Source: Candidatus Rifleibacteriota bacterium (GTDB taxonomy: Bacteria > Muiribacteriota > Ozemobacteria > Ozemobacterales > Ozemobacteraceae). Taken from it: 64,000 nt of DNA. The notes beneath the pieces are model-generated. The model searched no databases and had not been told where the DNA came from. It was given only the letters and a program-made list of their open reading frames with translations. Each line of letters starts with the position of its first letter. Positions within the stretch are counted from its first letter, which is position 1. The stretch lies in NCBI GenBank assembly GCA_015232575.1, contig JADFZL010000004.1:14381-78380 (forward strand), in the 5' to 3' direction. Shown piece after piece: positions 21,774-56,822 of this stretch. Position numbers and translations under genes: made by a program.

Positions 21774-21791
21774 GACATTAGGAGAAATTTT

Positions 21792-22550: not shown

Positions 22551-22640
22551 TTGGTGACAGTTAGGTCAAGTCTATGAGGTTTTTTCGTTAGGACTGATTG
22601 AGTTGTTACTGAAAAACTTTATTTCAATTTGGAGGATTGC

Positions 22641-23174: not shown

Positions 23175-23186
23175 AGGAGCAGAATC

Positions 23187-28408: not shown

Positions 28409-28421
28409 ATAAGAGCTTTCT

Positions 28422-35788: not shown

Positions 35789-37051
35789 ATGAAGAAAATA
35801 TTGTTCAGAGTAGTTTATCAGGCCGTTTTTGGATGTCTGTTCATTTTTTCTGCTTTTCTTATTCCGATAATAAAAGGATTTTCAAGAAGAATCAGGGATG
35901 GATTGAAAAATTATCTGGGTTTTTTACCTGTTCTCTTTTCTGGGAATACTGTCTGGTTTCACTCGGTATCGCTTGGCGAAAGTCTTGTTTCCTTCTCCGT
36001 TGCAGAGACACTGAAAGAAAGATTTCCAGAATTGATTCTGACTTTTACTTCGACCCACCCTGATTGTCTTAAGCTTGCGAAGAAAAAGAATTTTTTTTCA
36101 GCTTCAGCATATCTTCCACTGGATTTTTTTCCGTTTTTAACTAAAGCATTAAACAACTGGAAGCCACGCTTGGTGCTCATCTCAGAAACTGATTTCTGGC
36201 CGGAGTTTATCTGGCAGTGCAAACACCGTGGAATTCCTGTTTTTCTTATAAATGGCAGAATAAGCACGAAGCATGAAAAGGCTTTTTCTTCATTTCGATC
36301 ACTGGGTGAAAATGTTTTTGACTCGTTTCAATTGCTTATGGTACAACGGGATGAGGATCGGAAAAGATTGATTAACATGGGTGCATCACCTTCAAAGATT
36401 GTCATAAGCGGTAACATAAAAGCTGATATTAAAATAAAAATAGATAATACAGTCCTTGATGAAATGAAAAGATGGGTCGGAAACAGTAAAATAATGGTGA
36501 TTGGGTCCCTGCATCCGATGGAATTGGAAATTCTTTTTCAGTCATTAATCAGATTGATTCAAAATTATGGTCTTAAGATAATTATTGCGCCAAGAGAAAT
36601 TAAAAATGCGGAAATCTGGTACAGGAAATTTTCTGAAAATGGAATCATGTGTGTTTTACGGACTTCATTAAGCGATGACAGGGCCGGACAGGTAATGATT
36701 CTGAATACAGTTGGCGAACTTGCTTCTATTTATTCGCTTGCTGATTTTGCTTTTATTGGTGGTACACTTTCCAGAGAAGTTGGTGGACATAACCCATTTG
36801 AAATTCTTTACTTCGGAAAGCCTTTGATGATGGGTCCTTTCAGCCGCAATTTCAATGATCTGGCCGTTTCTCTTCAAGATTTGGGTGCTTGTCTGACAGT
36901 ATCCAATTCAGAAGAATTCGAAAAGAATGTATGCCGTTTGATTTCAGATGATTCTTTTGCTCAAAAAATCGGGTTGGCTGGCAAATCAGTGTTTTCAGCC
37001 AATAGGGGAGCAATGCAGAAAACCCTGGAAGAAATAAGTAAAATTATATGA
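35789..37051 (+). CDS. waaA: 3-deoxy-D-manno-octulosonic acid (Kdo) transferase
   Basis: N-terminal anchor. WFHSVSLGES motif. Length of about 420 aa. Confidence 0.75.
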   Translation: MKKILFRVVYQAVFGCLFIFSAFLIPIIKGFSRRIRDGLKNYLGFLPVLFSGNTVWFHSVSLGESLVSFSVAETLKERFPELILTFTSTHPDCLKLAKKKNFFSASAYLPLDFFPFLTKALNNWKPRLVLISETDFWPEFIWQCKHRGIPVFLINGRISTKHEKAFSSFRSLGENVFDSFQLLMVQRDEDRKRLINMGASPSKIVISGNIKADIKIKIDNTVLDEMKRWVGNSKIMVIGSLHPMELEILFQSLIRLIQNYGLKIIIAPREIKNAEIWYRKFSENGIMCVLRTSLSDDRAGQVMILNTVGELASIYSLADFAFIGGTLSREVGGHNPFEILYFGKPLMMGPFSRNFNDLAVSLQDLGACLTVSNSEEFEKNVCRLISDDSFAQKIGLAGKSVFSANRGAMQKTLEEISKII

Positions 37052-41879: not shown

Positions 41880-42140
41880 TAAAAAAGACAAGACAAGAGT
41901 TTTTTCCGCAGATTACGCAGATTTTCAAGATCAAGATCAAGATTGTAAGATCTTGATTTTGGATTTTAGATTCAAGATTTGATGTATGAGATTTTTTGGA
42001 TTAGGAAGAGATTGTGACAGTGTTGCAGAACAGATACAATTATTGGATAACAATGCGTGCATAGGCACTTCTGAAAATGTAGAATCTGTTTTTCTCTGTT
42101 TTTTTCCGCGCCTCTGCGTCTCTGCGTGAGATCGTTCTTT
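41880..42140. repeat. Intergenic repeat, copy 2. It has the aaaagacaaga flank, the ccgcagattacgcagatt arm, phased AGATT pentamers and the ttttctctg..cctctgcgt..ctgcgtgagat..cttttcttc block.
   Basis: Aligned by eye to copy 1. Confidence 0.55.
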
Positions 42141-42159
42141 TCTTCTGATAAGATTTTTT

Positions 42160-42247
42160 CTTCATGCTTTGCTGCCTTTTTGCCGAAATACTAACTGAAT
42201 AGGATTCTTTTTTTGCTTGGTTTTCAAGAAAAGGCAGGAGTAAAGAC
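42160..42247 (+). promoter_or_regulatory. Conserved leader and 5' UTR of giant gene 1 (cttcatgcttt...ttttcaagaaaa..caggagtaaagacATG)
   Basis: About 80% identical to 48452-48538, including the AGGAG RBS. Confidence 0.5.
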
Positions 42248-45200
42248 ATGAGGAGAAGTAGCATATTTCGTGTGCTGATTTTTTTGGTGTATCTGTTGAG
42301 TTTACAGGTTCACCTTCTGGCGGGTATTGAAAATTTAAAATGTACCATTACCGAACCAGCAGATACCGTCGGAAAGAAATTTAATTCTGGTGTAAGTGTT
42401 AAGTTGAATGCCAGTTGGGCAGGGGTAGCTACGCCTCCTTTTTCTGCGAGCTTTTTTTCCTCATCCGGGGCAGCGTCAAACGCACTTGGAACAACCGTTA
42501 CAAGTGGAAACAGCGCTGATTTTGTCACAACTGGCTCATCATTGGGCGCTGGGCAGAAGGGCTTCAAAGTAGAAGTTTATGAGACCTCAATACCAAATGC
42601 CACAATGTTGTCAGCAGCTTCTGACAAGAATATCGAAATCGACCTTATTCCACCTGCAATTACCGTTTCTCTTGATAACGGCTCTGTCTTTTCCCCGGGT
42701 ACTGGTTTTAATGTAGTAAAATTCACCGTTAGATCAAGCAAAAATGTTCAAGGTGTTCCTGATGTTACTATTTCTCCGGAAATTGCAGGTGCTTCGCCTG
42801 CTCCCGACGGAACGCCTACCGAAACAACTTTCAGATATACTCTTCAGCTTCCAACAAATGTTGTTGCAGGTGCTTATTCAATAAGAGCAGTCTGCAAAGA
42901 TACGACTCTTCCTCTCGATACAGCTAACTCCGGAAGCGGACAGACAGGTTTTACTGTAAAAAGCGATGGTCCTCAACCACCGACTGTAACCGTTTCAGAA
43001 CCAGTTTCTCCAATACAGCAAAAAAACTTTGTGGTGAAAGGGAAAATTACTAATGGAATGGTGAAACTTTCACTTCACGAAGGTGCTACGAAGATATCAG
43101 ATGCCGTCATTAACGGACTTGACTGGACTGCCACCGTTGCCAGCACTACTGAGGGTGAGCACAGATACACTGCAAGGGGTGCTGATGCTCTTGGGAACGT
43201 TTCCCCGGATTCTGCTGAAATCATCGTAAAGGTAGATATTACTCCACCTGCACGCGGAGTTCTTGTACAGCCGCAAAGTCCGACATCATCAGCAAAAATA
43301 AACATATCTGGAACATCTGCTGTTGATGCACTGAACAACGGAGTAAATTCTCCACCCGTTAAAGTTGGGCTGTATGCTATGGACGGGACAGAGATTGGTT
43401 CTGTTTCAGCAAATCTCGATGGATCGTTTACCTTTCTGAATGTGAATCTCTCTGATGGTGATAACCTGTTTTATGTAGTTACAGAAGATTCTGCTAATGG
43501 TCCTCCGGGAAACAGATCGACACCTTCTGTGCCTATAAGAGTTTTCCGTGACAATTCAGGTTCAACCGTTGCAACAGTTTTGATCGGATCATCCCAACTT
43601 GCATCTCAGCCAATTCCTTTAAGCGCAGACACCTGGCTGACAGCAGGAAATTACGGAGTTAAGATTGATTTTACGAAGGATATGGACGCCTCGTCTAAAA
43701 CTGCAATTTCCTACACACCTTTGAATGGAACTGAGCAGGTAAGCAATAACGGCTCCTGGATAGCATCAAGATCATTTTCGGGCATTATTACCATTCCAGG
43801 CGGACAATCTGCAGTTTACGATGGTCTGGCACCGGAACTGAAAATTTCTGCTGCAAAAGACATTGCAGGGAATGTAATGGCTCCACATACTATCCCGACT
43901 CCGTTTAATATTGATACTAACCCGCCCGTGACTGTAATGGATTCAATGGATACTTTATTTGTTGCAAGTGGAGCTACTTCAGTTACTATCAAGGGTTCCT
44001 CAAGCGATGCCGGCTCTGGTGTTGGTTATGTTGAAATTGCCTGGCAGCTATATTCAGGCGGAACAATTTCTTCACAGTCTGTTCCGATTTTTAATGGCGC
44101 GAATGCTTCCTGGACAGCTACCTGGGACGTTTCTACCCTTCCCGCCGGATATTACAAATTGTGGGCTATCGCTGCAGATCGTTCCAAACCAAATCCTAAC
44201 AGGGAAGCTATGATTCCAACAGGATTCAGGCTTGTTGCAGTTGACAGAGATGCGCCTTTAGTAACACGCGTGAGTATTGATGACCTTATTAAAGATATTA
44301 ATGACATGTATACCGGCACGACAGTGCCAGTTATTGCTTCGTCTGTGACAAAGCTCACCGCTGTTTTCTCAGATACCAGCGGTTGGGGAATTGATTTTTC
44401 CAGAACTGTGTTTACACTTGTACATCAAGGAAGCAGCACAAATATCGCTGGAAATTATGCCAACAACGGAACAGATACAATGTTTTTCACTTTTCCGCAG
44501 TTATCGCAGGCTGGAACATACACAGTATCAGTGAATCCGTTTGATAAAGCTGGAAATTCCATGCCACTTGTAGCAACAAGAACATTTGTTATCGACAACG
44601 GCGGACCCGTGGGAGTAAATTTTGAGCCTGTTGCAGGCATTTATGCTAATAATACCAATCCCGCAATTGCCACAGATCAGGTCTGGGCTTTTATTGATGA
44701 CCGTGAGGCTGATTATTCAAGTTCGACAATAGAGGTTGTCTATAATGGAAACACCACTGGACTTCAATTAAAGAGTGCCTCAACGACAGCCCTGGTCTGG
44801 GATTTCACCGGAGATTCTGCTACTCATACTTCCGATCAGAGCATCGATGGAAGATATAACATTACCGTAGTTCCATGGGATATTTTCGGAAATCGTGGAA
44901 ATGCAGTAAATTCACACTTCTTCCTTGATACACGGGCTCCGGTTGTTACCCAGGCTGACCCAGCGTCTTCATCCTGGAATGGTTTGTCGATGAGAACAAT
45001 AAAAGCCGGTGTTTCAGATGCTCCAAAGGATCATGTTACTTATGGCGGAGCAGCAGTTGCCAAAGATGCATCATGGCAGAATTCAAATGGCAGCGGAATC
45101 AATCAGTCTTCTGCATCATTCAGCGCAAATGTTGAGTTTCTCAGTAAAACTCTGCCTGGCGGGTTTTCTTCTGCTAACATGATGGAAATTACCATGCCAG

Positions 45201-47635
45201 CTATAGCAGTGGCAGATACTAATCCACCTGGATGGGGCACAATTACTGCAAATATCAAATTAGATGATAATGTAAACAGTCTCAGAGCTAACACTGCTTC
45301 ATACACGTGGAATTTATTCATGGATTACATGAGACCTGTAATGACTTTTTCAAAACCTCTTTCAAGCGGAAAATATTGTAAGAATAGTATCAATATTGGC
45401 GGTTCTGCAAGCGACAGAGGAGCTGCAACAAGTAATCTCTACGTTCAAAAGGTTGAAGTTTCCAAGGACCAGACAACTTACAATGCAGCAGACTTTGCGA
45501 TGGGAAAAATCGGCAGCTGGACCTATAAAATGGATATTTCTGAAATGACTGACGGTGCACATAAGTTCTATGGAAGGGCTTATGACAGAGGCAACAATAT
45601 GTCAAACCCAGATAATGCTTATGCTGATGCCGGTGTTGAAACAGTTGTTACATTTACTGTCGATAGAACTCCACCAGCACCACCGACTCCGATTATTCCA
45701 CTTAGTGACAGTATTACAAACAATCGTGGACAGCGATTTAAATGGAACAAAGTAACAGATGGTGATCAGTATCTGTTTCAGGTTGCTGATGATGCAAGTT
45801 TTAATAATGTTATCAATAACCTTATACAGAGCGGAGATGCCAGCTATACTGGTCTTCTCGGTCAGGTCACTTATCTTCCTGAAGCATCTTTTTCTGTGCC
45901 CAAAGACGGAACATTCTATTGGAGAGTTGCTTCCGTTGAACTTTGCAATGATGGTTATAACATCAGCAGTTTTTCAACAACAATGAGGTTTACAGTCGAT
46001 ACAGTCAAGCCAAAAATTCTTGAAGTGCAGCCGACACCATCGACTGGCAACAAGATCACAACCGGCATGGTAACATTTACTGTCCGGTTCAGCGAAGCCA
46101 TGGATACAACAATTCTTCCGACGGTTTCTATTACATCAGCCGGCGGTCAGCTCATGCTTATAGAGACAGTAACTTTCAAAGATAATACCTGGACGGGCAC
46201 AACCGTAATTCCAAAAGATACAAGTGCATTGTATGATGGATTGGCTGTGATTCAGGTAACCAACGCCAAGGATCTCGCCACAAACCAGATGGAAAATGAT
46301 TCGACAAACACAGTTGTAATCAATACTGGTCCTGCTTTTGAAACAAAATTGTTTTCAAATCCGGCTCATGAGTATGAAATTATGATTGTGACAAGATCAA
46401 GCGAAGCTCTTCAGGCGCCTCCAACATGTTCTGTTACACAGGGCGGAGAGAAGGTGCCGGTTGTAATGAACTTTCTGAAAGAAAAGTTCTATACCGGAGG
46501 CTATCGAATTGATCCAGAGCATTCTGGCAAGGCTTATATTGATATCAGCGGCAGCGATTTGTACGGTATGACTGGCAAAGGTTCTGTTGAATTCAACGTT
46601 GCCGGGGTAGATCTGGAAACAAGTATAAGATGGATTTCTGAGGATGCAGCGAGCGAATTGCTTATTGGCTCGGGAACATTCAGAAACAAAGCTTCTATTT
46701 ACATGCTTCCCAAAACAGGAAGTGATGCTGTTAACCCGCTGGCATCGAAAAAAGCTTCTGTAAAACGTGCATCTGCTGTTAAAGATTTGTCAGAACTTTC
46801 AAAGGAAGAGCTGGTTGAATTAAAAGCACTCGAAGAACTTGGGCCTTCCTCGGTAAAAGTCTCGAGAAAGATGCGTTTTACTACAAATTACGAGATTCCA
46901 GCGGAAATGAATATTGATCCAAAGCGTGTTGGAATTTATCGATACTCTTCAAATGGCTGGACTTACTGCAAGAGCGAAATGAAAGGCAACAAAGTCTCTG
47001 CCGAACTTGATGGGCTTGGTAAGCTTTCGTTAATGGCAGATCTCAAGGCACCCGTAATGGCTTCCATTTTCCCGTCACAGGGAGAACGGCTTGAAGATGC
47101 CGATTTTACAATTGAAGGTAAGATTTCTGATAAAGGTGCAGGTTTGCTTCTTGAATCGGTAAAGATAAGCATTGATGGGAATCAGGTTTCTGATGTTACA
47201 GTCGAAGAAGACGGAACTTTCAGATATGCGCCCAGAAAGACACTTCCAAAAGGTGATCATGTTCTTGAAATAACTGCAAGTGACAAGGCTGGAAATCAGA
47301 TTGTTACATCAATTACCTTCGTAGCGCCTGGTCCGTTTGCAATTGAAGATTTGAAAGCTTATCCAAATCCTGCAAGAGGCGATGCAATGTGGTTTGCATA
47401 CAATTTTGGGCAGAGAGCTGAGGAAATCAAGCTGAAAATCTATGATGTAGCCGGACACGAAGTCACTTCCTTTGAGACGTTTGATTTTAACGCGCTTTCG
47501 ACCGGAAAACTTAAATGGGATTTAAGAAACGATGACGGAAAGAGAGTTGCTAACGGAGTGTATCTTTATAAAATTGAAGCCATCAAAAATGGGCAGAAGA
47601 TCAAAAGCCGCGGAAAACTGGCGGTTTTGAGATAG
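42248..47635 (+). CDS. Giant (1795-aa) cell-surface protein with many Ig-like repeats and a C-terminal T9SS-type sorting domain
   Basis: Signal peptide. C-terminus YPNPARGDAMWFAYNF...IKLKIYDVAGHEV...GVYLYKIEAIKNGQKIKSRGKLAVLR. Paralog of 48539-56143. Confidence 0.8.
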   Translation: MRRSSIFRVLIFLVYLLSLQVHLLAGIENLKCTITEPADTVGKKFNSGVSVKLNASWAGVATPPFSASFFSSSGAASNALGTTVTSGNSADFVTTGSSLGAGQKGFKVEVYETSIPNATMLSAASDKNIEIDLIPPAITVSLDNGSVFSPGTGFNVVKFTVRSSKNVQGVPDVTISPEIAGASPAPDGTPTETTFRYTLQLPTNVVAGAYSIRAVCKDTTLPLDTANSGSGQTGFTVKSDGPQPPTVTVSEPVSPIQQKNFVVKGKITNGMVKLSLHEGATKISDAVINGLDWTATVASTTEGEHRYTARGADALGNVSPDSAEIIVKVDITPPARGVLVQPQSPTSSAKINISGTSAVDALNNGVNSPPVKVGLYAMDGTEIGSVSANLDGSFTFLNVNLSDGDNLFYVVTEDSANGPPGNRSTPSVPIRVFRDNSGSTVATVLIGSSQLASQPIPLSADTWLTAGNYGVKIDFTKDMDASSKTAISYTPLNGTEQVSNNGSWIASRSFSGIITIPGGQSAVYDGLAPELKISAAKDIAGNVMAPHTIPTPFNIDTNPPVTVMDSMDTLFVASGATSVTIKGSSSDAGSGVGYVEIAWQLYSGGTISSQSVPIFNGANASWTATWDVSTLPAGYYKLWAIAADRSKPNPNREAMIPTGFRLVAVDRDAPLVTRVSIDDLIKDINDMYTGTTVPVIASSVTKLTAVFSDTSGWGIDFSRTVFTLVHQGSSTNIAGNYANNGTDTMFFTFPQLSQAGTYTVSVNPFDKAGNSMPLVATRTFVIDNGGPVGVNFEPVAGIYANNTNPAIATDQVWAFIDDREADYSSSTIEVVYNGNTTGLQLKSASTTALVWDFTGDSATHTSDQSIDGRYNITVVPWDIFGNRGNAVNSHFFLDTRAPVVTQADPASSSWNGLSMRTIKAGVSDAPKDHVTYGGAAVAKDASWQNSNGSGINQSSASFSANVEFLSKTLPGGFSSANMMEITMPAIAVADTNPPGWGTITANIKLDDNVNSLRANTASYTWNLFMDYMRPVMTFSKPLSSGKYCKNSINIGGSASDRGAATSNLYVQKVEVSKDQTTYNAADFAMGKIGSWTYKMDISEMTDGAHKFYGRAYDRGNNMSNPDNAYADAGVETVVTFTVDRTPPAPPTPIIPLSDSITNNRGQRFKWNKVTDGDQYLFQVADDASFNNVINNLIQSGDASYTGLLGQVTYLPEASFSVPKDGTFYWRVASVELCNDGYNISSFSTTMRFTVDTVKPKILEVQPTPSTGNKITTGMVTFTVRFSEAMDTTILPTVSITSAGGQLMLIETVTFKDNTWTGTTVIPKDTSALYDGLAVIQVTNAKDLATNQMENDSTNTVVINTGPAFETKLFSNPAHEYEIMIVTRSSEALQAPPTCSVTQGGEKVPVVMNFLKEKFYTGGYRIDPEHSGKAYIDISGSDLYGMTGKGSVEFNVAGVDLETSIRWISEDAASELLIGSGTFRNKASIYMLPKTGSDAVNPLASKKASVKRASAVKDLSELSKEELVELKALEELGPSSVKVSRKMRFTTNYEIPAEMNIDPKRVGIYRYSSNGWTYCKSEMKGNKVSAELDGLGKLSLMADLKAPVMASIFPSQGERLEDADFTIEGKISDKGAGLLLESVKISIDGNQVSDVTVEEDGTFRYAPRKTLPKGDHVLEITASDKAGNQIVTSITFVAPGPFAIEDLKAYPNPARGDAMWFAYNFGQRAEEIKLKIYDVAGHEVTSFETFDFNALSTGKLKWDLRNDDGKRVANGVYLYKIEAIKNGQKIKSRGKLAVLR

Positions 47636-47639
47636 TCTT

Positions 47640-48293
47640 ATGGAGACAGAAAAAATGGAAAAGAAAAACTTAATATTTGTCTTTCTGGTTCCGGTGTTAA
47701 TGATGCTGAACGGATGTGGTGGTGGTGTTGCCGGCGAAGGCAGCAATGACTATCCGCAAACCAGCGGCACGACAATTATCAGGGCGAATTCTTTCAATGA
47801 TAAGGGCTGGGACCTGATTTCAAAAGCTCAGTATCAAAGTGCAATAACCTCTTTTAATCAGGTGCTGGCAGATAATCCGACAGCCCAGGAAGCCTGTGAG
47901 GCAAACTCAGGGCTTGGATGGGCACGTGGTCGAATAGGCACTATGAAGGACGGTATGGAGTGGTTTGCAAAAGCAGTTGATGGTTCCAATGATGCAAAAG
48001 TTGGACTGGCTGCTGCTTATGTTCAGTTGGGTTCAAAAAGTGATCTCGAAAAAGCTGTTGATTTGCTCTATACAAAGCTAGGTGGAGAAAATCCGCACTT
48101 TCATTATACCACCTCAAGACCTACCGGTGTAAGCGATGCCGAATGTCATGCTCTTCTAGCTTTTGCGTTTGCTGGAATCGGAAAAAACGATGAAGCGACA
48201 ATTCAGCTTGATTATGCAAAGGAATTGAATCCAAATTGGCAGAATACAACAATTGACCAGATAAACAATGTCGTAGAATTCCTTAATAAATAA
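47640..48293 (+). CDS. TPR-like lipoprotein. Partner of giant protein 1 and paralog of 56148-56822.
   Basis: Lipobox MMLNGC. Starts 5 bp after the giant-gene stop. Confidence 0.65.
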   Translation: METEKMEKKNLIFVFLVPVLMMLNGCGGGVAGEGSNDYPQTSGTTIIRANSFNDKGWDLISKAQYQSAITSFNQVLADNPTAQEACEANSGLGWARGRIGTMKDGMEWFAKAVDGSNDAKVGLAAAYVQLGSKSDLEKAVDLLYTKLGGENPHFHYTTSRPTGVSDAECHALLAFAFAGIGKNDEATIQLDYAKELNPNWQNTTIDQINNVVEFLNK

Positions 48294-48353
48294 TATTGCT
48301 GTCATTTCGACTAAATTTGACCTTTCGGAGATCTCTCATTCTTTTGGTCACTT

Positions 48354-48420
48354 AATCTGCGTAATCTGTGTAATCTGCGGACAGCTTTTAATCTTTAATC
48401 TTGAAATCTTGTAATCTTTA
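48354..48420. repeat. Intergenic repeat, copy 3 (aatctgcgtaatctgtgtaatctgcgga followed by phased AATCTT units)
   Basis: A 28-nt arm nearly identical to 451-478, followed by the same AATCTT array. Confidence 0.55.
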
Positions 48421-48451
48421 CCTTCTGCGGTAACGTGGGGGTGTATTTTTT

Positions 48452-48538
48452 CCTTCATGCTTTAGCTCTTTTTTGTCGAAATATGAACGAATAGAAATAT
48501 TTTTTCGCTCGTTTTTCAAGAAAAACAGGAGTAAAGAC
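48452..48538 (+). promoter_or_regulatory. Conserved leader and 5' UTR of giant gene 2
   Basis: Paralogous to 42160-42247. Confidence 0.5.
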
Positions 48539-51500
48539 ATGAGGAGACAATGGTTTTGTGTGCTGATTTTTCTGGCGGTGTTTCTGCTGGGTTGTCAGGC
48601 GCACCTGATAGCTGATATACAGGGACTGAAATTATTAGTTTCTGATCCCGCAGATCCGCTTGGAAAGAAATTTAATGGCGGTCAAACTATTAGACTCAAC
48701 GCGAGTTGGGAAGGAGGAACGGTTGCTACTCCTCCTTTTTCGATCAGTTTTTATTCTGGTTCAACAAAGCTTGATACATCTAACCAGTCTTCAACATCAA
48801 AGGAATTTACAGTAACTGCCTCAACTTTAGGGAACGGTCTGAAAAATTTCAAAGTTGAAGTTATTGAAACAGCTGTTCAAAATGCGGTTATGAAATCAGC
48901 AGATTCTGACAAATCAGTTGATGTTGACCTCACTCCGCCCACAGTCGAAGTTATACTTGATAATGGAACTGTATTTTCACCTAATCCCGGATTTAATTTA
49001 GTCAAATTTACCGTAAAATCAAGTAAGAATGTTCAGGGAAGTCCTGATGTTACGGTTACTCCGACAATTACCGGAGTTACAATTACTCCAGATGGAACAC
49101 CCACCGAAAAGACTTTCAAATATAATCTGCAGCTTCCCGCAGGTGTTACTGCCAGCGATTATTCCATAAAAGCAGTTGCCAGAGATACGACTCTTCCTTC
49201 CGGTACAGAAAACTCTGGAAATGGACAGGCAGTTTTTACCGTTAAAAGTGAAGGTCCGCTAACTCCCACAATAAATGTTTCTGAACCAGCTTCTCCAGTT
49301 TTGCAGAAAAGTTTTTCCCTGAAAGGAAAAACAACTGCTGGAATGACAAAAATTACCGTTTACGAGGGAGCTACCGAGATTGTTCTGGGGACAATTACCG
49401 GGACTGACTGGACCGCTACCGTTCCAGTTGATAAAGCTACCGAGGGCGAGCATAAATACACTGTAAAAGGTCTTGATGCTCTGGGTAACCTGTCTCCGGC
49501 ATCATCGGAATTCACCGTTAAGGTAGATGCTTCCGCCCCCGATCAGGGCGTTCTTGTTGCACCAACTGGTTCTACCTCAGCAGCAAAGATTAAACTGAAC
49601 GGAACATCTGCTATTGATCCTCTGAAAAACGGTGTTAATTCTCCTCCGGTAAAAGTTGGTCTTTATAAAATGGGCGGAAGTCAAATTGCCTCAGTTACTG
49701 CTACTGTCGACGGAGCTTTTTCGTTTAACGATGTAAGTCTGGTCGAAGGTGAGAATTTTTTCTATGTTATTACAGAAGATTCAGCAAACGGTCCCCCGGG
49801 AAATAAATCAAATCCATCGACTCAGATAAAAGTCGTTCGCGATAATTCCCTTACACCTACTATTACTGTTTCCCAACCAGCATCTCCAGTTCAGCAGAAA
49901 AGTTTTTCGCTGAAAGGGAAAATAACCACTGGAATGACAAAAATTACAGTTTATGAAGGCGCCACAGAGATTTCACAGGGAACTATAAGCGGGAGTGACT
50001 GGAACGCTTTTGTGCCTAATGTGAACGAGGGCGAGCACAAATACATTGTAAAAGGCATCGATGCTCTCGGTAACGAATCTCCTCCATCGCCGGAATTTAT
50101 CGTAAAGGTAGATGTAACTGCACCTGCTGCTGGCGTTCTTGTACAACCGCAGAGCCCGACTTCGGCCACAAAGATTAATATAACCGGAACTTCTGCTGTC
50201 GATAATGTGAATAACGGTGTCAATTCTCCACCGGTTAAAGTTGCTTTGTACAAAATGGGCGGAAGTGAAATCGCCACAGTTGCTGCAGCTGTTGATGGAA
50301 CGTTTTCATTCTCTGATGTAGATATTGTAGATGGCGATAATTTCTTCTATGTTGTTACAGAAGATTCAGCTAATGGTCCTCCGGGAAATAAATCAAACCC
50401 GTCAGCTCAGATAAAAGTAGTTCGCGATACTACCGCGCCAAGTGTCGGTTCTGTTCTCATTGGTTCTTCGCAGCTTGCTACTCAGCCTCTTCCTTTGAGT
50501 GAAACAAATCCTCTGGGCACCGGTTCCTATGGAATTCAGATTGATTTTTCCAAAGATATGGATGCAACAGTTAATCCATCGGTTTCTTATACTCCTTTGA
50601 ACGGAACTGAGCAGGTCAGCACGACTGGTACCTGGATAGCATCAAAAACTTTTTTAGCTTCAATAAGTATTCCATCGGGGCAATCTGCTACTTTTGATGG
50701 TATTGCAAAAGAGCTGAAAATTTCTGGTGCGAAAGACACTGCTGGAACTGTAATGAGTCCATATACCCTTACAAATCCATTTAAAATAGTCACTACACCT
50801 CCAGTACCACCAATAACGCCGACAACACCTATTGTGGGTTTAAAGTGCACCATTACTGAACCTGCAGATACCGTTGGAAAAAAATATAATGCTGGTGTCA
50901 GTGTTAAGCTTAACACAAGCTGGACTTCAGGGGGCACACCTCCTTTTTCTGCAAGTTTTTTCGCTTTGTCCGGGGCTGCGGCAAATTCACTTGGAACAGC
51001 TATTTCAAGTACCAACTCGGCAGACTTTGTAACTACCGGGGCGAAATTGGGTGCTGGACAGAAAGGTTTCAAAGTTGATGTCTTGGAAACGGCTATTCCG
51101 AATATTCCGATGGTATCAGCTACTTCCGACAAGAATATTGAAATTGATATTACTGCGCCTGTAATCACAATTACTCTTGATAATGGCTCTACATTTTCTC
51201 CGAGTGCTGGATTTAACGTGGTGAAATTCACGGTAAAATCAAGCAAGGGCGTTCAGGGAGTACCAGATATTTCTATTTCTCCTGAAATTGCGGGAGCTGC
51301 ACCAGCTCCGGATGGAACGCCTACTGAAACGAATTTTAAATATACCCTTCAACTTCCAGCCACTGTTGTTGCGGGCGGATATACAATAAAGGCAGTTTGT
51401 AAAGATACAACCCTTCCTCTTGAAACGGCAAACTCCGGCACCGGTCAGATTGGTTTCAGTGTAAACGGTAATGGACCTCAGCCGACAACAGTCATAATAT

Positions 51501-54500
51501 CTGAACCAGCTTCTCCGGTTCAGCAGAAAAACTTTTCTCTGAAAGGGAAAATTTCCAACGGAATGACAGCAATTTCGGTTTTTGAGAATGGCGCAAAAGT
51601 AGCTGATGGTGTAATAAACGGCCCTGACTGGAGCGCCAGTCTAGCCAATGCCCCTGAAGGCTTACACAGATACACTGTGAGAGGCACAGATGCTCTCGGA
51701 AATTTATCTCCTGAATCTGCTGAAATCATAGTAAAAGTAGATCTGACTTCGCCAACCCGCGGCGTCCTGGTTCAGCCGCAAAGTCCAACGTCGTCAGATA
51801 AAATCAGCATAACCGGAACATCGGCTCTTGATCCGTTGAATAACGGAGTAAATTCGCCTCCGGTTAAAGTTGGTCTGTATTCAATGAGTGGTACAGAAAT
51901 GGGTTCTGTTACAGCCAATCTTGACGGCACGTTTACTTTTCTCAATGTAAACCTGGCTGATGGCGATAACGTTTTCTATGTTATTACAGAAGATTCAGCA
52001 AACGGGCCTCCTGGAAACAGATCTAATCCGTCTGCTCCGATAAAAATCATTCGCGATAATGCAGGGTCGAATATCGCTGCTGTTTTGATTGGTTCTCCAA
52101 AACTTGCAACCCAGCCTCTTCCAATTGTTGGAGATACCTGGCTTTCAGCCGGAAGCTATGGCATTCAGGTCGATTTTTCAAAGGAAATGGATTCCTCGAT
52201 AAAACCTGTAATTTCTTATACGCCTCTGAATGGAATTATACAGGTAAGTAATAATGGCTCCTGGGTTGCATCGAGAACGTTTTCATGCACTATTACCATT
52301 CCAGGCGGACAGTCTGCCGCTTATGACGGAATGGCAATAGAACTGAAAATCTCCGCAGCAAAAGACATTGCAGGAACTGTAATGGCTGCGTATACTGTTT
52401 CAAATCCTTTCAGAATCGATACAAAGTCGCCCGTTACTGTAATGGATTCAATGGCTCCAATATTAGTGGCAAGCGGAGTTACTTCAGTAAATATCAAAGG
52501 TTCATCCAGCGATTCCGGCTCTGGAGTCGGTTATGTCGAAATTGCCTGGCAGAATAAGGCAGGCGGAGCAATTTCATCGCAGACTGTTCCGATTTTCAAT
52601 GGAGCTAACGCTTCATGGACGACTTATTGGGATGTATCGGCTCTTTCCGAAGGATACTACAAATTGTGGGCAGTAGCAGCAGACAGAGCAGAGCCTAATC
52701 CAAATAAAGAAGCAATGTACCCGACTGGTTTCAGGCTTGTCGCCGTTGACCGTGATATGCCGACAGTAAACCGCGTGAGTCTGAATGATATTCTTAAAGA
52801 TATTAACGACATGTATTCCGGCACCACAGTGCCTGTAATAGCTTCCTCTGTGACAAAGCTCATTGCAGTTTTTTCAGATCCCAGCGGCTGGGGAATTGAT
52901 TTTTCGAGGTCGCTGTTTACACTTATGCATGAAGAAAGTGGTACAAATATTACCGGGAATTACACAAACAACGGAACTGATACAATGTATTTCACTTTTC
53001 CGAAGTTGACACTGAGTGGAACATACACCGTTTCAGTAAATCCGATGGATAAATCTGGTAATGCCATGCCGCTTGTTGCAACAAGAACATTTATAATTGA
53101 TAACGGCGGACCTTCGACAGTCACTTTCCAGCCGATTTCCGGAGCTTATGCCAACAATACTAATCCGGCAATAGCATTAGATCAGCTGTGGGCCTTCATT
53201 GATGACCCTGAGGCTGATTATATAAATTCAACAATTGCCGTGGCTTATAATGGAATGAAAACCGGGGCTCAGATAAATGGCGCATCCACAACAGCCCTGA
53301 TCTGGGATTTCACCGGAAATACTGCTACTCATACGGCTGATCAGAGCATTGATGGAAGATATAACCTGACTGTTGTACCACGTGACACTTTCGGAAATAC
53401 TGGAAATACTGTTAAATCGCACTTCTTCCTTGATACACAGGCTCCGGTTGTAACTAATGCTGAACCAGCGTCATCATCGTGGTGCGGTTTGGCTATGACG
53501 AATATAAAAGCAGGCGTTTCAGATGCTCCAAATGATCAGGTTACCTATAGGGGTGCTGCAATTGCCAAAGATGCATCATGGCAGAATTCCGAAGGAAGTG
53601 GACTGAAATATTCCACAGCGTCTTTTACTGCAAATGTTGAATTTATGAGTAAAATAATGCCTGGCGCGTTTTCCTCAAACAACATGATGGAAATAAATAT
53701 GCCCGCTATATCTGTATCTGATCCTGCTGCTGCAGGCTGGGGAACAATTACGGCAAATCTTAAAATTGATGATAATGTAAACAGCCTTAACCCCAACAGT
53801 GCATCTTATTCATGGCGTATTTTCATGGATTACATGAGACCTTTAATGACTTTTTCCAAGCCGCTTTCCAGTGGAAAATACTGCCGGAAAACCCTTGATC
53901 TGGGCGGTTCTGCTTCTGACAGGGGAAGAGACGACAGAAACATCTATGTTCAAAAAGTCGAGTTTTCAAAAGATCAGGCAACCTATATTCAGGCAGATTT
54001 TGCAATGGGAAAAATCGGCAGTTGGACTTATAATAAACTGGATATTTCTGAAATGACAGATGGGCCGCATAAACTCTATGGAAGAGCCTACGATCGTGGT
54101 TTCAACATGTCCAACCCTGATAATGCGTTTGCTGATTCCGGCGTTGAAACAGTTGTTACATTTACTGTTGACAGAACACCACCAGAAGCACCAACTGCGA
54201 TTCTTCCGCTGAATGAAAGTATTACAAATAATCGCGGGCAGCGATTCAAATGGAATAAAGTAACCGATGGCGATCAGTATTTATTTCAGATTGCTGACGA
54301 TGTAAACTTCAACAATGTTCTCAATAATCTCATTCAGCCTGGCGATGCTACATATTCAGGACTTCTGGGCCAGGTAACTTACCTTCCCGAAGCATCTTTT
54401 TCTGTTGCGAAAGATGGAACATTCTACTGGAGAGTTGCTGCAATTGAGGTATGTAATGATGGTTTCAATATAAGCGCTTTCTCGCCGACCATGCGTTTTA

Positions 54501-56143
54501 TTGCTGACACAGTAAAGCCGAAGATTCTTGGAGTGCAGCCGACGCCATCGACAGGCAACAAGATTACGACTGGCATGGTAACATTTACTGTAAGATTCAC
54601 TGAAACGATGGATACAACAGTTATTCCGACGGTTTCACTTACATCTGCGGGTGGGCAGCTTATGCTTATTGAGACAGTTTCGTTCAAAGACAACACCTGG
54701 ACAGGTACAACAGTAATTCCGAAAGATACGAGTGCGCTATACGATGGACTGGCTGTGCTTCAGGTGACAAATGCCAAGGATCTCGCCACAAACCAGATGG
54801 AAAACGATACGTCCAGTACGGTTGTTATCAACACCGGTCCAGCGTTTGAAACAAAATTGTTTTCCAACCCGGCACATGAATTCGAAATAATGATTGTTAC
54901 AAGATCAAGCGAAGCGCTTCAGGCTCCTCCAACGTGTTCAGTTACACAGGGAGCAGAAAAGGTGCCAGTGGTAATGAACTTTTTGAAAGAAAAGTTTTAT
55001 ACCGGCGGCTATCGAATTGATCCAGAACGTTCTGGTAAGGCTTTCATTGATATCAGCGGAAGCGATATTTATGGTATGACCGGCAGAGGTTCTGTTGAAT
55101 TCAACGTTGCCGGAGTAGATCAGGAATCAAGCATCAGATGGGTTTCTGAAGATGCAGCCAGTGAATTACTTATCGGTTCGGGAACATTCAGGAAAAAGGC
55201 TTCTATTTACATGCTTCCGGGAACGGGAAGTGAAGAAGAAAATCCGATGGTATCAAAGAAAGCGTCGGTAAAGCGTGCTTCTGCGATTAAAGATTCATCA
55301 GAACTTTCTAAGGAAGAACTGATTGAAATTAAAAAACTTGAAGAATTTGGACCATCTTCTCTTAAAGTCTCAAGGAAAATGCGTTATAGCACCAATTACG
55401 AGATTCCATCGGGAATAAATATTGATCCTGAGAAAGTTGGAATCTATCGATATTCTTCTGGTGGGTGGACTCACTGCAAGAGTATCGTTAAAGGAAACAA
55501 AATATCAGCTGAACTTGATGGGCTCGGAAAGCTCGCATTGATGGCAGATCTCAAAGCTCCGGTAATGGCTTCGATATTTCCTTCTAATGGTGAGCGCCTT
55601 GAAGATGCCGATTTCACAATCGAAGGTAAGATTTCTGATAAAGGCGCAGGGTTGCTTCTTGAATCGGTTAAGATCAGCATTGACGGAAATCAGGTTACTG
55701 ATGTTACCGTAGAAGAAGATGGAAGCTTCAGATATGTGCCTCGTAAAACACTTCCAAAGGGAGATCATGTTCTGGAAATCTCTGCAAGCGATAAAGCAGG
55801 AAACCAGATTGTTACATCAATTACCTTTGTAGCACCCGGACCGTTTGCTATTGAAGATCTGAAGGCTTATCCGAACCCGGCGAGAGGTGATGCGATATAT
55901 TTTGCATACAACTTTGGACAGAAAGCAGAAGAAATCAGGCTGAAAATCTATGATACAGCCGGACAACAGGTAACTTCCTTTGATACTTTTGACTTCGACA
56001 AACTCTCGTCAGGGAAACTCAAGTGGGACTTGAGAAATGACGATGGTAAGAAGGTGGCAAATGGAGTTTATCTTTATAAAATTGAAGCCATCAAAAATGG
56101 TCAGAAAATAAAAAGTCGTGGAAAACTGGCAGTTTTGAGATAG
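48539..56143 (+). CDS. Giant (about 2534-aa) cell-surface Ig-repeat protein with a T9SS-type C-terminal sorting domain. It is the gene-1 homolog carrying an extra N-terminal module of about 760 aa.
   Basis: ATG at 48539 preceded by caggagtaaagac, identical to gene 1; the ORF track's TTG start at 48473 is rejected. Signal peptide MRRQWFCVLIFLAVFLLGCQA. The C-terminal sorting domain is conserved. Confidence 0.8.
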   Translation: MRRQWFCVLIFLAVFLLGCQAHLIADIQGLKLLVSDPADPLGKKFNGGQTIRLNASWEGGTVATPPFSISFYSGSTKLDTSNQSSTSKEFTVTASTLGNGLKNFKVEVIETAVQNAVMKSADSDKSVDVDLTPPTVEVILDNGTVFSPNPGFNLVKFTVKSSKNVQGSPDVTVTPTITGVTITPDGTPTEKTFKYNLQLPAGVTASDYSIKAVARDTTLPSGTENSGNGQAVFTVKSEGPLTPTINVSEPASPVLQKSFSLKGKTTAGMTKITVYEGATEIVLGTITGTDWTATVPVDKATEGEHKYTVKGLDALGNLSPASSEFTVKVDASAPDQGVLVAPTGSTSAAKIKLNGTSAIDPLKNGVNSPPVKVGLYKMGGSQIASVTATVDGAFSFNDVSLVEGENFFYVITEDSANGPPGNKSNPSTQIKVVRDNSLTPTITVSQPASPVQQKSFSLKGKITTGMTKITVYEGATEISQGTISGSDWNAFVPNVNEGEHKYIVKGIDALGNESPPSPEFIVKVDVTAPAAGVLVQPQSPTSATKINITGTSAVDNVNNGVNSPPVKVALYKMGGSEIATVAAAVDGTFSFSDVDIVDGDNFFYVVTEDSANGPPGNKSNPSAQIKVVRDTTAPSVGSVLIGSSQLATQPLPLSETNPLGTGSYGIQIDFSKDMDATVNPSVSYTPLNGTEQVSTTGTWIASKTFLASISIPSGQSATFDGIAKELKISGAKDTAGTVMSPYTLTNPFKIVTTPPVPPITPTTPIVGLKCTITEPADTVGKKYNAGVSVKLNTSWTSGGTPPFSASFFALSGAAANSLGTAISSTNSADFVTTGAKLGAGQKGFKVDVLETAIPNIPMVSATSDKNIEIDITAPVITITLDNGSTFSPSAGFNVVKFTVKSSKGVQGVPDISISPEIAGAAPAPDGTPTETNFKYTLQLPATVVAGGYTIKAVCKDTTLPLETANSGTGQIGFSVNGNGPQPTTVIISEPASPVQQKNFSLKGKISNGMTAISVFENGAKVADGVINGPDWSASLANAPEGLHRYTVRGTDALGNLSPESAEIIVKVDLTSPTRGVLVQPQSPTSSDKISITGTSALDPLNNGVNSPPVKVGLYSMSGTEMGSVTANLDGTFTFLNVNLADGDNVFYVITEDSANGPPGNRSNPSAPIKIIRDNAGSNIAAVLIGSPKLATQPLPIVGDTWLSAGSYGIQVDFSKEMDSSIKPVISYTPLNGIIQVSNNGSWVASRTFSCTITIPGGQSAAYDGMAIELKISAAKDIAGTVMAAYTVSNPFRIDTKSPVTVMDSMAPILVASGVTSVNIKGSSSDSGSGVGYVEIAWQNKAGGAISSQTVPIFNGANASWTTYWDVSALSEGYYKLWAVAADRAEPNPNKEAMYPTGFRLVAVDRDMPTVNRVSLNDILKDINDMYSGTTVPVIASSVTKLIAVFSDPSGWGIDFSRSLFTLMHEESGTNITGNYTNNGTDTMYFTFPKLTLSGTYTVSVNPMDKSGNAMPLVATRTFIIDNGGPSTVTFQPISGAYANNTNPAIALDQLWAFIDDPEADYINSTIAVAYNGMKTGAQINGASTTALIWDFTGNTATHTADQSIDGRYNLTVVPRDTFGNTGNTVKSHFFLDTQAPVVTNAEPASSSWCGLAMTNIKAGVSDAPNDQVTYRGAAIAKDASWQNSEGSGLKYSTASFTANVEFMSKIMPGAFSSNNMMEINMPAISVSDPAAAGWGTITANLKIDDNVNSLNPNSASYSWRIFMDYMRPLMTFSKPLSSGKYCRKTLDLGGSASDRGRDDRNIYVQKVEFSKDQATYIQADFAMGKIGSWTYNKLDISEMTDGPHKLYGRAYDRGFNMSNPDNAFADSGVETVVTFTVDRTPPEAPTAILPLNESITNNRGQRFKWNKVTDGDQYLFQIADDVNFNNVLNNLIQPGDATYSGLLGQVTYLPEASFSVAKDGTFYWRVAAIEVCNDGFNISAFSPTMRFIADTVKPKILGVQPTPSTGNKITTGMVTFTVRFTETMDTTVIPTVSLTSAGGQLMLIETVSFKDNTWTGTTVIPKDTSALYDGLAVLQVTNAKDLATNQMENDTSSTVVINTGPAFETKLFSNPAHEFEIMIVTRSSEALQAPPTCSVTQGAEKVPVVMNFLKEKFYTGGYRIDPERSGKAFIDISGSDIYGMTGRGSVEFNVAGVDQESSIRWVSEDAASELLIGSGTFRKKASIYMLPGTGSEEENPMVSKKASVKRASAIKDSSELSKEELIEIKKLEEFGPSSLKVSRKMRYSTNYEIPSGINIDPEKVGIYRYSSGGWTHCKSIVKGNKISAELDGLGKLALMADLKAPVMASIFPSNGERLEDADFTIEGKISDKGAGLLLESVKISIDGNQVTDVTVEEDGSFRYVPRKTLPKGDHVLEISASDKAGNQIVTSITFVAPGPFAIEDLKAYPNPARGDAIYFAYNFGQKAEEIRLKIYDTAGQQVTSFDTFDFDKLSSGKLKWDLRNDDGKKVANGVYLYKIEAIKNGQKIKSRGKLAVLR
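49256..50443 (+). repeat. Intragenic tandem direct repeat, 2 x ~594 bp (198-aa Ig-like unit: ...SEPASPVQQKSFSLKGK...TEDSANGPPGNKSNPS.QIKVVRD)
   Basis: The two units are about 80% identical. Further copies lie at about 51490-52080 and in gene 1 at about 42970-43560. Confidence 0.7.
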
Positions 56144-56147
56144 TTTT

Positions 56148-56822
56148 ATGGAGACAGACAAAATGCAGAGAAAACAGAAAAAAGTGCAGAAAAAAGGGCT
56201 ATTTGTTCTCATTTTTATTCCGGTAATGATGATGCTGAGCGGGTGCGGTGGAGGTGTTGCCGGCGAAGGTGGAAACCAGTATCCACAGACCAGCGGCACA
56301 ACAATTGTCAGGGCAAATTCTTTCAATGATGAAGGCTGGGACCTCATTTCAAAAGGTCAGTATCAGAGTGCAATAGCGCTTTTTAATCAGGTTCTTGCAG
56401 ATAATCCGACAGCTCAGGAAGCCTGCGAGGCGAATTCGGGTCTCGGGTGGGCACGCGGTCGGATAGGAAGTCTGAAAGATGGCATGGAATGGTTTGCAAA
56501 AGCTGTTGATGGCTCAAACGATGCAAAAGTTGGTATGGCTGCTGCTTATATTCAGATGGGTTCGAAAAGCGATCTGGAAAACGCCGTTGATTTGCTCTAC
56601 ACGAAACTCGGAGGAGAAAATCCGCACTTTCATTATACCACTTCGAGAGCTACCGGAGTAAGCGATGCAGAATGTCATGCTCTTCTTGCTTTTGCGTTTG
56701 CCGGAATCGGAAGGAGCGATGATGCAACCATTCAGCTTGATTATGCAAAGGAATTGAATCCAAACTGGCAGTCAACGACGATTGAACAAATTAACAATGT
56801 CGTCGATTTCCTGAATAAATGA
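56148..56822 (+). CDS. TPR-like lipoprotein, partner of giant protein 2
   Basis: Lipobox MMLSGC. 5-bp gap to the upstream gene. About 85% identical to 47640-48293. Confidence 0.65.
   Translation: METDKMQRKQKKVQKKGLFVLIFIPVMMMLSGCGGGVAGEGGNQYPQTSGTTIVRANSFNDEGWDLISKGQYQSAIALFNQVLADNPTAQEACEANSGLGWARGRIGSLKDGMEWFAKAVDGSNDAKVGMAAAYIQMGSKSDLENAVDLLYTKLGGENPHFHYTTSRATGVSDAECHALLAFAFAGIGRSDDATIQLDYAKELNPNWQSTTIEQINNVVDFLNK

Follow-up and report, generated by a model that had tools for sequence, protein, structure and literature searches.

Why should a bacterium keep two giant genes side by side, each followed at once by a gene for a small lipoprotein, and what would such a pair do for the cell? 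The question is raised by a 64,000-nucleotide (nt) stretch, called the window below, from a Candidatus Rifleibacteriota bacterium of the uncultured phylum Riflebacteria, family Ozemobacteraceae (assembly GCA_015232575.1, contig JADFZL010000004.1, positions 14,381 to 78,380). An initial annotation of this DNA described two consecutive units, each with a conserved leader, a giant protein of immunoglobulin-like (Ig) repeats ending in a type IX secretion system (T9SS) sorting domain, a short gap, and a lipoprotein with tetratricopeptide repeats (TPR). We believe the best explanation is a duplicated operon pair whose giants would be displayed on the cell surface through a C-terminal domain (CTD) by a T9SS-like route, each with its cognate lipoprotein, and under sigma-28-type transcription. 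We would put the probability of this at about 0.6. The duplication by itself is ordinary; the wider conserved system to which it belongs is the more interesting part. The analyses included listing of open reading frames (ORFs), translation, blastn and blastp, scoring with Pfam and NCBIfam hidden Markov models (HMMs), and profile searches. The genes concerned are the following, with lengths in amino acids (aa).

42248-47635, + strand: giant 1, 1795 aa, by ORF listing and translation; Sec-type signal peptide, identified by eye, at about aa 1-26; body all-beta and Ig-like; Big_13 at aa 1637-1688; CTD at aa 1700-1795
47345-47632, + strand: CTD of giant 1, FlgD_ig / T9SS type-A-like by HMM scores
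47640-48293, + strand: TPR lipoprotein 1, ORF of 217 aa (likely start 47655, 212 aa); lipobox LNGC, then GGGVAGEG, then the TPR domain
48539-56143, + strand: giant 2, 2534 aa, NCBI MBF0407168.1
48473-56143, + strand: ORF of giant 2, beginning at TTG 48473
48539-50833, + strand: extra N-terminal module of giant 2, by blastp and blastn; signal peptide, copy of giant 1 aa 27-444, second copy of giant 1 aa 227-553, Pro/Thr linker at about 50783-50833
50834-56143, + strand: core of giant 2, collinear with mature giant 1; 79% aa identity, a single 1-aa indel
55853-56140, + strand: CTD of giant 2, by HMM scores and a match to PorU in the PDB
56148-56822, + strand: TPR lipoprotein 2, ORF of 224 aa (likely start 56163, 219 aa); NCBI name 'tetratricopeptide repeat protein'
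56917-58806, + strand: third gene of the operon, ORF of 629 aa, single copy; lipobox FTGC, CarboxypepD_reg, fn3/Pur_ac_phosph_N, right-handed beta-helix
59042-63331, + strand: TPR/HEAT protein, 1429 aa; joined to the operon in the nearest relative only

Every element of the layout described for the two units is present, as ORFs, blastn and blastp agree, but some of the boundaries have to be moved. The second giant gene had been taken from 48473. Its true start is ATG 48539 (MRRQW...), since the regions upstream of the two giants align up to AGGAG and ATGAGGAG, and the product is then identical to MBF0407168.1. The 5-bp gap between giant and lipoprotein came from taking the first in-frame ATG, 4 nt away, as the lipoprotein start. 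We favor starts at 47655 and 56163, which make the gap 19 nt. Each has GGAG 9 nt upstream and gives the length of the NCBI model, 212 or 219 aa, and an alignment of the family points to the same starts. The lipobox holds up, as L-[NS]-G-C followed by GGG in both lipoproteins, and the N-terminal signal of the giants, MRRSSIFRVLIFLVYLLSLQVHLLAG, is of the Sec type as judged by eye. To call the giants Ig-repeat proteins is right in part. Pfam finds Big_13, Big_6, Big_7, Big_3_3 and Cna_B in some regions, but most of the length has no Pfam match.

Is the duplication real? A blastn comparison of the two units gives one long collinear match, 42334-48291 against 50839-56820, 78.5% identical over 5986 nt, and the segmental duplication is genuine. 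Both copies are intact. A codon alignment of the giant cores gives a synonymous divergence (dS) of 1.08 and a nonsynonymous divergence (dN) of 0.12, for a dN/dS of 0.11, with a single 1-aa indel across 1767 aa. Between the two lipoproteins the aa identity is 85%, dS is 0.75 and dN/dS is 0.10. Gene conversion was considered as a source of the similarity and rejected, since dS lies between 0.6 and 2.4 in every 100-codon window of the giant cores and no low-dS stretch appears. The source is a metagenome-assembled genome (MAG), so one could argue that the assembly is at fault in showing two units, with a repeat collapsed or expanded or two populations joined in a chimera. We think this very improbable. 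Copies that differ at 21.5% of nt, with a dS of about 1.1, cannot be mis-assembled identical repeats, and both are under purifying selection. The junction between the units, 48294-48446, is unique sequence with a terminator-like hairpin just before a second promoter; there is no trace of the third gene after unit 1, and unit 2 has a module of its own. Both lipoproteins are encoded on one deposited contig of 412 kb.

Comparison with other species bears on the age of the event. Giant 1 and the core of giant 2 are 73-79% identical, against 64-65% between giant 1 and its nearest relative (L010), and the lipoproteins are 85% identical to each other against 69% to the nearest relative. Since the copies in the window are closer to each other than to L010, the duplication is lineage-specific and postdates the split from that relative. 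This tandem duplication, which took in the first two genes of an operon of three, is old and has been under selection.

The extra module of about 2.3 kb in giant 2 had been described as a divergent copy of the first 760 aa. The sequence resembling the start of giant 1 does begin again at 50834 (IVGLKCTITEP...) after a Pro/Thr-rich linker, but the module is not a plain copy. By blastn, the leader and 5' part at 42154-43518 match 48447-49809 at 69%, 42978-43919 matches 49854-50795 at 69%, and inside unit 2 the segment 49259-49844 matches 49850-50429 at 76%. By blastp, residues 30-1795 of giant 1 correspond to residues 790-2556 of giant 2 (79% identical), residues 1-444 to 23-466 (59%), and residues 227-553 to 444-770 (61%). 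These matches point to a diverged copy of the first 553 residues of giant 1 that carries an internal duplication of a two-domain segment, roughly residues 227-444. The two internal copies are 74% identical, which makes the internal duplication the most recent event. The module is 59-62% identical to giant 1 and the core of giant 2 and 53-59% identical to L010, the sister species, so it could be either older or faster evolving. Faster evolution seems more likely.

Across Riflebacteria the operon itself is conserved, collinear and present once. We scanned one genome per GTDB species and obtained 36 loci, and what we say of them is limited to loci with enough contig sequence. The named ones are Riflebacteria, among them Ozemobacter sibiricus, Rifleibacterium amylolyticum, HGW-Riflebacteria-1 and -2, and GWC2_50_8; two or three small contigs are probably mis-binned. 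In all loci that reach far enough the order is giant, TPR lipoprotein and third gene, each present once. The giant aligns to about residues 25-1795 of giant 1, as a single segment in nearly every locus, at 38-65% identity, and residues 1150-1450 or so are its most conserved region. The lipoprotein is 57-70% identical across loci and the third gene, the best conserved of the three, 56-76%. A protein search gives 43 relatives of the lipoprotein of about 213 aa at 52-69% identity. In five genomic contexts the shared cassette is a giant of 1795-1828 aa, a TPR lipoprotein and a CarboxypepD_reg/fn3/beta-helix protein of 614-626 aa, often with a divergent CarboxypepD_reg+TIG gene upstream. In the context of the nearest relative L006 a 1520-aa HEAT protein follows the cassette, syntenic with the 1429-aa protein of the window; the other genomes are without it. 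Two giant-lipoprotein units, and a giant of 2534 aa, occur only in this window among the loci compared. The ancestral state in Riflebacteria is one giant gene, and the 2534-aa form is a one-off.

This bears directly on the idea, put forward in the initial annotation, that the giants would be variable adhesins or S-layer-like proteins whose length shifts by recombination and modular accretion. There is something to be said for it. Giant 2 did gain a 760-aa module through partial duplications, tandem paralogues are a substrate for recombination, and at the level of fold the giant adhesins SiiE and Lap have similar Ig-like modules. However, the orthologues in about 30 Riflebacteria species have ORFs of 1773-1829 aa and are fully collinear, and this near-constant length argues that the giant family is not a length-variable adhesin. 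The two paralogues differ by one 1-aa indel outside the module, dN/dS is about 0.1 along the full length with no low-dS stretch, and the longer form exists in one genome only. We consider this explanation improbable.

What, then, are the giants? The answer depends on the domain that ends at the last residue of both of them, downstream of the N-terminal Sec-type signal. Their scores in bits against the relevant models are these.

FlgD_ig (Pfam PF13860), cutoff 27: giant 1 27.6, giant 2 32.7; both reach the gathering cutoff
Por_Secre_tail (PF18962), cutoff 27: giant 1 24.8, giant 2 26.6
CHU_C (Pfam, type B), cutoff 27: giant 1 18.7, giant 2 21.1
TIGR04183, cutoff 23: giant 1 22.5, giant 2 24.6
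PorU (NF033707), last 145 or so model positions only: giant 1 70, giant 2 88; the cutoff of 420 is for the whole protein

Model scores alone would make membership of the T9SS type-A family borderline. The case for homology comes from solved structures. When the whole of giant 1 (1795 aa) is searched against the PDB, its sole sequence relative is the C-terminus of PorU (6za2, E 3e-6), and the last 260 aa of giant 2 match residues 1019-1147 of PorU at E 1.3e-7. A profile of seven CTDs matches the PorU CTD (6za2, residues 1055-1151) at E 5.8e-12, the PorZ CTD (5m11, residues 672-758) at E 2e-4, and FlgD at E 0.02. Foldseek also ranks PorU first with a structure model of the last 260 aa; the predicted local distance difference test score (pLDDT) of that model is 62, so this ranking is weak support. 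By these matches the domain is a homologue of the type-A CTDs of the T9SS, with the CTDs of PorU and PorZ as the best solved relatives. The T9SS-type tail claimed for the giants is thus supported, with FlgD_ig above its cutoff and the T9SS models TIGR04183 and PF18962, at 22.5-26.6 bits, at or near theirs. NCBI already names giant 2 a 'T9SS type A sorting domain-containing protein'.

The domain is not peculiar to these two proteins. A word-index search with the last 150 aa of giant 2 found 5 fragments only and was superseded by an exhaustive profile search, which matched 46,360 proteins. About 80 of the best 150 matches stop exactly at the C-terminus of their protein, and the rest of the 150 are proteins with tandem FlgD_ig repeats, for example in Acetivibrio. 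Among the best 150, the named proteins with a terminal match are varied giants of Riflebacteria, from 675 to 5683 aa, plus one Margulisbacteria protein. They include the 4173-aa protein of the complete genome OZ223236.1 and MBF0407401.1 (5683 aa), whose accession falls in the same NCBI range as that of giant 2, so it is probably from the same MAG. The domain is thus a C-terminal tag common to several giants in Riflebacteria.

The giants of the other size classes also have small partners. A profile search with the lipoprotein gave 112 clusters, about 58 of the 213-aa class and about 54 of 230-270-aa classes, and every named one is from Riflebacteria. Several of the clusters are on contigs equal in length to those of the 4.1-4.3k giants. 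At the four loci below, the paralogous TPR lipoprotein is 26-30% identical to that of the window (E 1e-6 to 1e-13) and lies -1 to 14 nt after a giant.

L166 (OZ223236.1, 1176841-1209362): 4173-aa giant, 3-nt gap, 258-aa protein, then a giant of at least 3272 aa
L167: 4311-aa giant, overlapping by 1 nt with a 264-aa protein
L169: giant of at least 4009 aa, 3-nt gap, 250-aa protein, then a giant of at least 3321 aa
L170: 3300-aa giant, 14-nt gap, 231-aa protein, then a barrel of the PorV/PorQ family

The giants tested at all four loci bear the same CTD, scoring 95-123 bits with a custom HMM, and where their ends were read (L166, L169 and L170) the domain terminates in K[LI]AVLR. The small proteins are lipoproteins in which ..GCGG(G/S).. 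goes with a linker of low complexity and a TPR domain. The lipobox is LNGC in lipoprotein 1 of the window and LSGC in lipoprotein 2, and its G-C does not vary among 28 members of the family or among the paralogues of the second and third classes. The lipoprotein is of the outer-membrane type, with Cys-Gly-Gly-Gly in a conserved tether. In an AlphaFold2 model of lipoprotein 2 (pLDDT 84) a TPR superhelix spans aa 59-223, and the tether ahead of it, though conserved, is disordered. One giant with one TPR lipoprotein is thus a rule that covers three ancient paralogous pairs, with giants of about 1.8k, 3.3k and 4.2k aa. The tandem layout of giant, lipoprotein, giant, lipoprotein occurs elsewhere in Riflebacteria genomes too. 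The constant gap had been offered as evidence that the lipoprotein is an obligate partner, such as an anchor, chaperone or export adaptor. Its equality in the two units was inherited from the duplication, so it is not independent evidence of coupling. The idea itself is strongly supported, since the two genes are adjacent in all loci of the species scan that reach far enough and in the two other giant classes.

What would such a partner be? A pilotin comes to mind. The lipoproteins share with PilF, PilW, Tgl and TadD a similar size, a lipobox and a superhelix of 4-5 TPRs, and they give weak matches to NCBIfam models of PilW (16.3 bits, cutoff 154), Tgl (16.4, cutoff 225) and BamD (16.4, cutoff 81), all far below cutoff. 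On the other hand, the scores are 16-23 bits against the 150-225 that would be needed, no secretin gene was found in the cassette contexts, Foldseek returns generic TPR matches only, the likeness of fold being real but generic, and the client here would be a CTD giant.

The PorV/PorQ-family barrel at L170 deserves separate attention. The CTD is kept in two cases, PorU and PorZ, where it docks onto PorV and PorQ (PMC10202324). The gene at L170:10921-11880, after the 3300-aa giant and its lipoprotein, matches the NCBIfam model 'PorV/PorQ family protein' (NF033709) over its full length at 135 bits (cutoff 90). On the equivalog models of PorQ and PorV it gives matches that fall short of the cutoffs, its sole PDB relative is PorV of F. 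johnsoniae (6h3i_F, E 1.7e-4), and its C-terminal residue is Phe. NCBI cluster names read 'PorV/PorQ family protein [Candidatus Ozemobacteraceae]', and two further assemblies imply the same adjacency by accessions consecutive with that of a 230-aa lipoprotein. At L168, from Candidatus Margulisiibacteriota (JBFWNS010000009.1), a 5696-aa giant has a related CTD, and two genes upstream of it there is a PorV-like barrel scoring 69.8 bits. Genes for an NHL protein and for an RHS/YD-shell toxin-like protein come after this giant, and no TPR lipoprotein partner accompanies it.

An alternative is that the CTD is a structural Ig-like module of the FlgD_ig fold with no T9SS behind it, and that the giant is kept at the surface by a Riflebacteria-specific route, with the TPR and beta-helix lipoproteins as its dedicated factors of export and anchoring. 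FlgD_ig is the sole model clearly above cutoff for both giants, the CTD profile also matches internal tandem FlgD_ig repeats in Firmicutes such as Acetivibrio cellulolyticus, and the linkage of the giant with two lipoprotein genes is strict. Against this, the domain is exactly C-terminal in more than half of the best 150 matches, the CTDs of PorU and PorZ are closer to it than FlgD is, and an above-cutoff barrel of the PorV/PorQ family comes right after a paralogous pair, with a weaker one beside the Margulisbacteria giant. We regard this alternative as unlikely, but it is one to keep in view.

The remaining part of the locus to be explained is the leader. Its features, and those of the junction, are as follows.

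42162-42188, + strand: candidate promoter 1, sigma-28-like, TCATGCTT-N12-GCCGAAA
42189-42247, + strand: 5' leader of giant 1, with an invariant AGGAG Shine-Dalgarno
48422-48451, + strand: terminator-like hairpin (48422-48441) and T-run, a consensus match from a pattern scan
48455-48481, + strand: candidate promoter 2, sigma-28-like, TCATGCTT-N12-GTCGAAA

Across the family the consensus is TGTCAAGTTT-N12-GCCGAAA and then (T)GAGAAAT. It stands 60-90 nt before the giant's start codon, and the other intergenic DNA shows no alignment. The core form is TCAAGTTT-N12-GCCGAAA. With fixed spacing and 0-1 mismatch it occurs in 28 of 30 loci, and in 794 kb of Riflebacteria DNA it was found solely upstream of giants; a looser pattern over 891 kb agrees. 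The consensus for FliA is TAAAGTTT-N11-GCCGATAA (PMC7286023; see also PMC12784957). The two resemble each other in the two-block form, in a -10 element with a GCCGA core and in a -35 element with (T/C)AAGTTT, but the genes downstream here encode surface proteins and not flagellar ones, and the sigma factor is a candidate only. Upstream of the 4173-aa giant of OZ223236.1 stands TAAAGTTA-N12-GCCGATAA, and the 3.3k giants have ..A.GTTT-N12-GCCGAT(G/T)A. In an alignment of 13 leaders AGGAG and ATGAGG are invariant and RNAalifold predicts no pairing that is conserved; searches of the window for Rfam families and tRNAs give nothing. The conserved leader would then be a sigma-28-like promoter followed by an unstructured 5' untranslated region that has a strong ribosome-binding site, with the promoter function inferred from the motif. 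Two other readings of the leader were tried and rejected: it has no GG-N10-GC element of sigma-54, and just weak sigma-70-like sites lie nearby.

A metagenome scan with TCAAGTTT-N12-GCCGAWA gave at least 120 stretches, of which 80 loci were examined. The matches there lie mostly inside coding regions, genes of flagellin or motility are not enriched, and the loci include no giant from Riflebacteria. The scan thus neither supports nor opposes the sigma-28 assignment. In three unrelated metagenome contigs (L047, L057 and L114) the same pattern stands 11 nt upstream of a gene for a conserved helix-turn-helix protein of about 76 aa (...ILTVMEVARFLRVPKSTVYKLAR), where it could be a genuine promoter, belonging to a gene of a mobile element in another phylum. 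Short repeats rich in AGATT/AATCT also lie upstream of both units, in opposite orientation: CCGCAGATTACGCAGATT...CAAGATCAAGAT at 41900-41990, which gives a 14-bp hairpin at 41931-41962, and AATCTGCGTAATCTGTGTAATCTGCGG...AATCTTTAATCTTGAAATCTTG at 48360-48420.

If the promoters are of the sigma-28 type, the giants could themselves be structural parts or accessories of the flagellum, for example of a sheath or a layer associated with the filament. Sigma-28-like promoters before three giant classes and the FlgD_ig match would fit, and Ozemobacteria possess flagellar genes, including FlgV, a flagellar protein co-conserved with sigma-28 (PMC11607428). However, Sec-type signal peptides and lipoprotein partners do not suit flagellar type III export, the FlgD match is weaker than those to PorU and PorZ, and no flagellar gene is found in the window or any locus examined. 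Sigma-28 regulons often contain non-flagellar genes as well. A flagellar role seems to us scarcely probable.

The explanation we prefer, surface display of the giants with cognate lipoproteins, can now be stated step by step. The giant would be exported by Sec and would then cross, or be fixed at, the outer membrane via its CTD by a T9SS-like route. The source organism makes lipopolysaccharide (LPS), since KdtA is encoded at 35789-37051. The route would include a barrel of the PorV/PorQ family, as the CTDs of PorU and PorZ are bound to PorV and PorQ. Each TPR lipoprotein would serve its own giant as a cargo-specific pilotin, adaptor or anchor. Transcription by a sigma-28 (FliA)-type factor would mean that the giants are made alongside the late motility genes. 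The N-terminus of the giant would be the distal end, so the extension of giant 2 would lengthen the exposed part. What the sequences show is that purifying selection kept both pairs after the duplication and that copy 2 then gained its 760 or so N-terminal residues via partial internal duplications.

Several observations weigh against this explanation. Giant 1 falls just under the cutoff of TIGR04183, both giants fall under that of PF18962, and the structure model of the CTD is of low confidence (pLDDT 62). A PorV/PorQ-family gene is absent from the window and from every 1.8k-cassette locus among the 36 searched, which also favors a CTD with no T9SS. No SprA/Sov, PorK/L/M/N or PorU turned up, although no search aimed at them was made, and FadL-like barrels of other function may also fall within the NF033709 family. 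Reviews confine CTD proteins and T9SS genes to the Bacteroidota or the wider Fibrobacterota-Chlorobiota-Bacteroidota (FCB) group (PMC10202324, PMC11285876), and the absence of any T9SS reported outside FCB in published surveys (PMC11285876) again speaks for the alternative without one; NCBI taxonomy puts Candidatus Rifleibacteriota under 'Bacteria candidate phyla', outside that group. On the side of transcription, the 4311-aa giant of L167 lacks the motif, the family has a spacer of 12 nt where the FliA consensus has 11 and a -10 element of GCCGAAA where FliA has GCCGATAA, and the -35 elements of the window itself are degenerate. The sigma-28 assignment would be drawn from resemblance and conservation, and the 891 kb of Riflebacteria DNA examined holds no flagellar gene, hence no flagellin promoter for comparison.

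It is useful to ask how close the known systems come. The nearest in sequence are PorU-PorV and PorZ-PorQ of P. gingivalis. Both there and here a C-terminal beta-sandwich domain of about 95 aa ends a Sec-exported protein, the CTDs are homologous in sequence, a barrel of the PorV/PorQ family is encoded beside one of the paralogous Riflebacteria giants, and an Ig-like domain (Big_13 in the giants) stands ahead of the CTD as in the C-terminus of PorU. The differences are that Riflebacteria lie outside the Bacteroidota/FCB, that the cargo is an Ig-like giant and not a sortase or an LPS-delivery protein, and that the model scores are just at the cutoffs.

Similar in logic are SprB and SprF of Flavobacterium johnsoniae, where a cargo with a type-B CTD is encoded beside a cognate PorP/SprF partner needed for its secretion or anchoring (PMC10202324). 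There too the gene of a giant surface protein with repeats sits in a cluster with that of an outer-membrane partner specific to the cargo, one partner per cargo. But the partner in Riflebacteria is a small TPR lipoprotein and not a beta-barrel, and the CTD is type-A/FlgD_ig-like, with CHU_C at 18.7 and 21.1 against a cutoff of 27. The same T9SS review describes cargo-cognate PorP/SprF barrels and no cargo-cognate TPR lipoprotein (PMC10202324), whereas each Riflebacteria cargo has one. The type I secretion system adhesins with RTX or BIg repeats (SiiE, LapA, Bap) do not fit. They resemble the giants at the fold level of the Ig modules only, whereas the giants have an N-terminal signal peptide, no RTX matches and lipoprotein neighbors.

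TfsA and TfsB of Tannerella forsythia offer another comparison. They are two large paralogous Ig-like S-layer proteins with T9SS CTDs, encoded in tandem and co-displayed on the surface of a member of the Bacteroidota with a complete T9SS. We know of no cognate lipoprotein genes for them. They differ from the giants also in that the ancestral state in Riflebacteria is a single gene.

What would it mean if Riflebacteria do run a T9SS-like display system, with three classes of giant bearing a PorU/PorZ-like CTD, private TPR lipoproteins and PorV/PorQ-family barrels? We hold this broader proposal only tentatively and think it somewhat doubtful. It matters because strongly selected CTD giants are found phylum-wide in a candidate phylum outside the FCB, with a PorV/PorQ-family barrel beside one of them. 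If it is true, CTD-dependent sorting extends past its accepted phylogenetic range of Bacteroidota/FCB, and the giants would belong to a motility-coupled giant-adhesin or surface-layer apparatus of an undescribed kind, with sigma-28-like promoters connecting surface architecture to the motility program. The cognate TPR lipoproteins, if real, would be a simple and testable example of cargo-specific adaptors or anchors. The duplication is a natural experiment in this respect, with two co-diverged pairs of cargo and partner in each cell, and is useful for questions of partner specificity. The domains themselves are not new, since automatic NCBI names already flag the CTD and the PorV/PorQ family; what is new here is the system-level pattern and the phylum. 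Riflebacteria have been noted for many conserved families without known function (PMC10849945). A search of the literature found no paper connecting Riflebacteria with the T9SS, and none on Ozemobacter or Rifleibacterium that bears on this operon.

The window holds some other genes worth recording. A second tandem duplication of two genes lies at 19635-24698. There the ORF 19635-20240 is 83% identical in aa to 22629-23174 over 181 aa, and 20253-21773 is 55% identical to 23187-24698 over about 510 aa, with a 252-aa gene (21792-22550) between the units; these genes have signal-peptide-like N-termini and no Pfam match. HEAT/TPR-repeat proteins are encoded at 5325-8018 (- strand, 897 aa) as well as at 59042-63331, where the 1429-aa protein has an (ET)n low-complexity run. 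Two adjoining small genes at 27875-29096 (+ strand) have N_methyl prepilin motifs and are probably pseudopilins or minor pilins. Finally, 9549-12527 (+ strand) encodes a 992-aa fusion of unusual architecture, an acyl-CoA ligase/synthetase (aa 16-501) joined to an NADPH-type HMG-CoA reductase (aa 621-991; TIGR00533, 355 bits).

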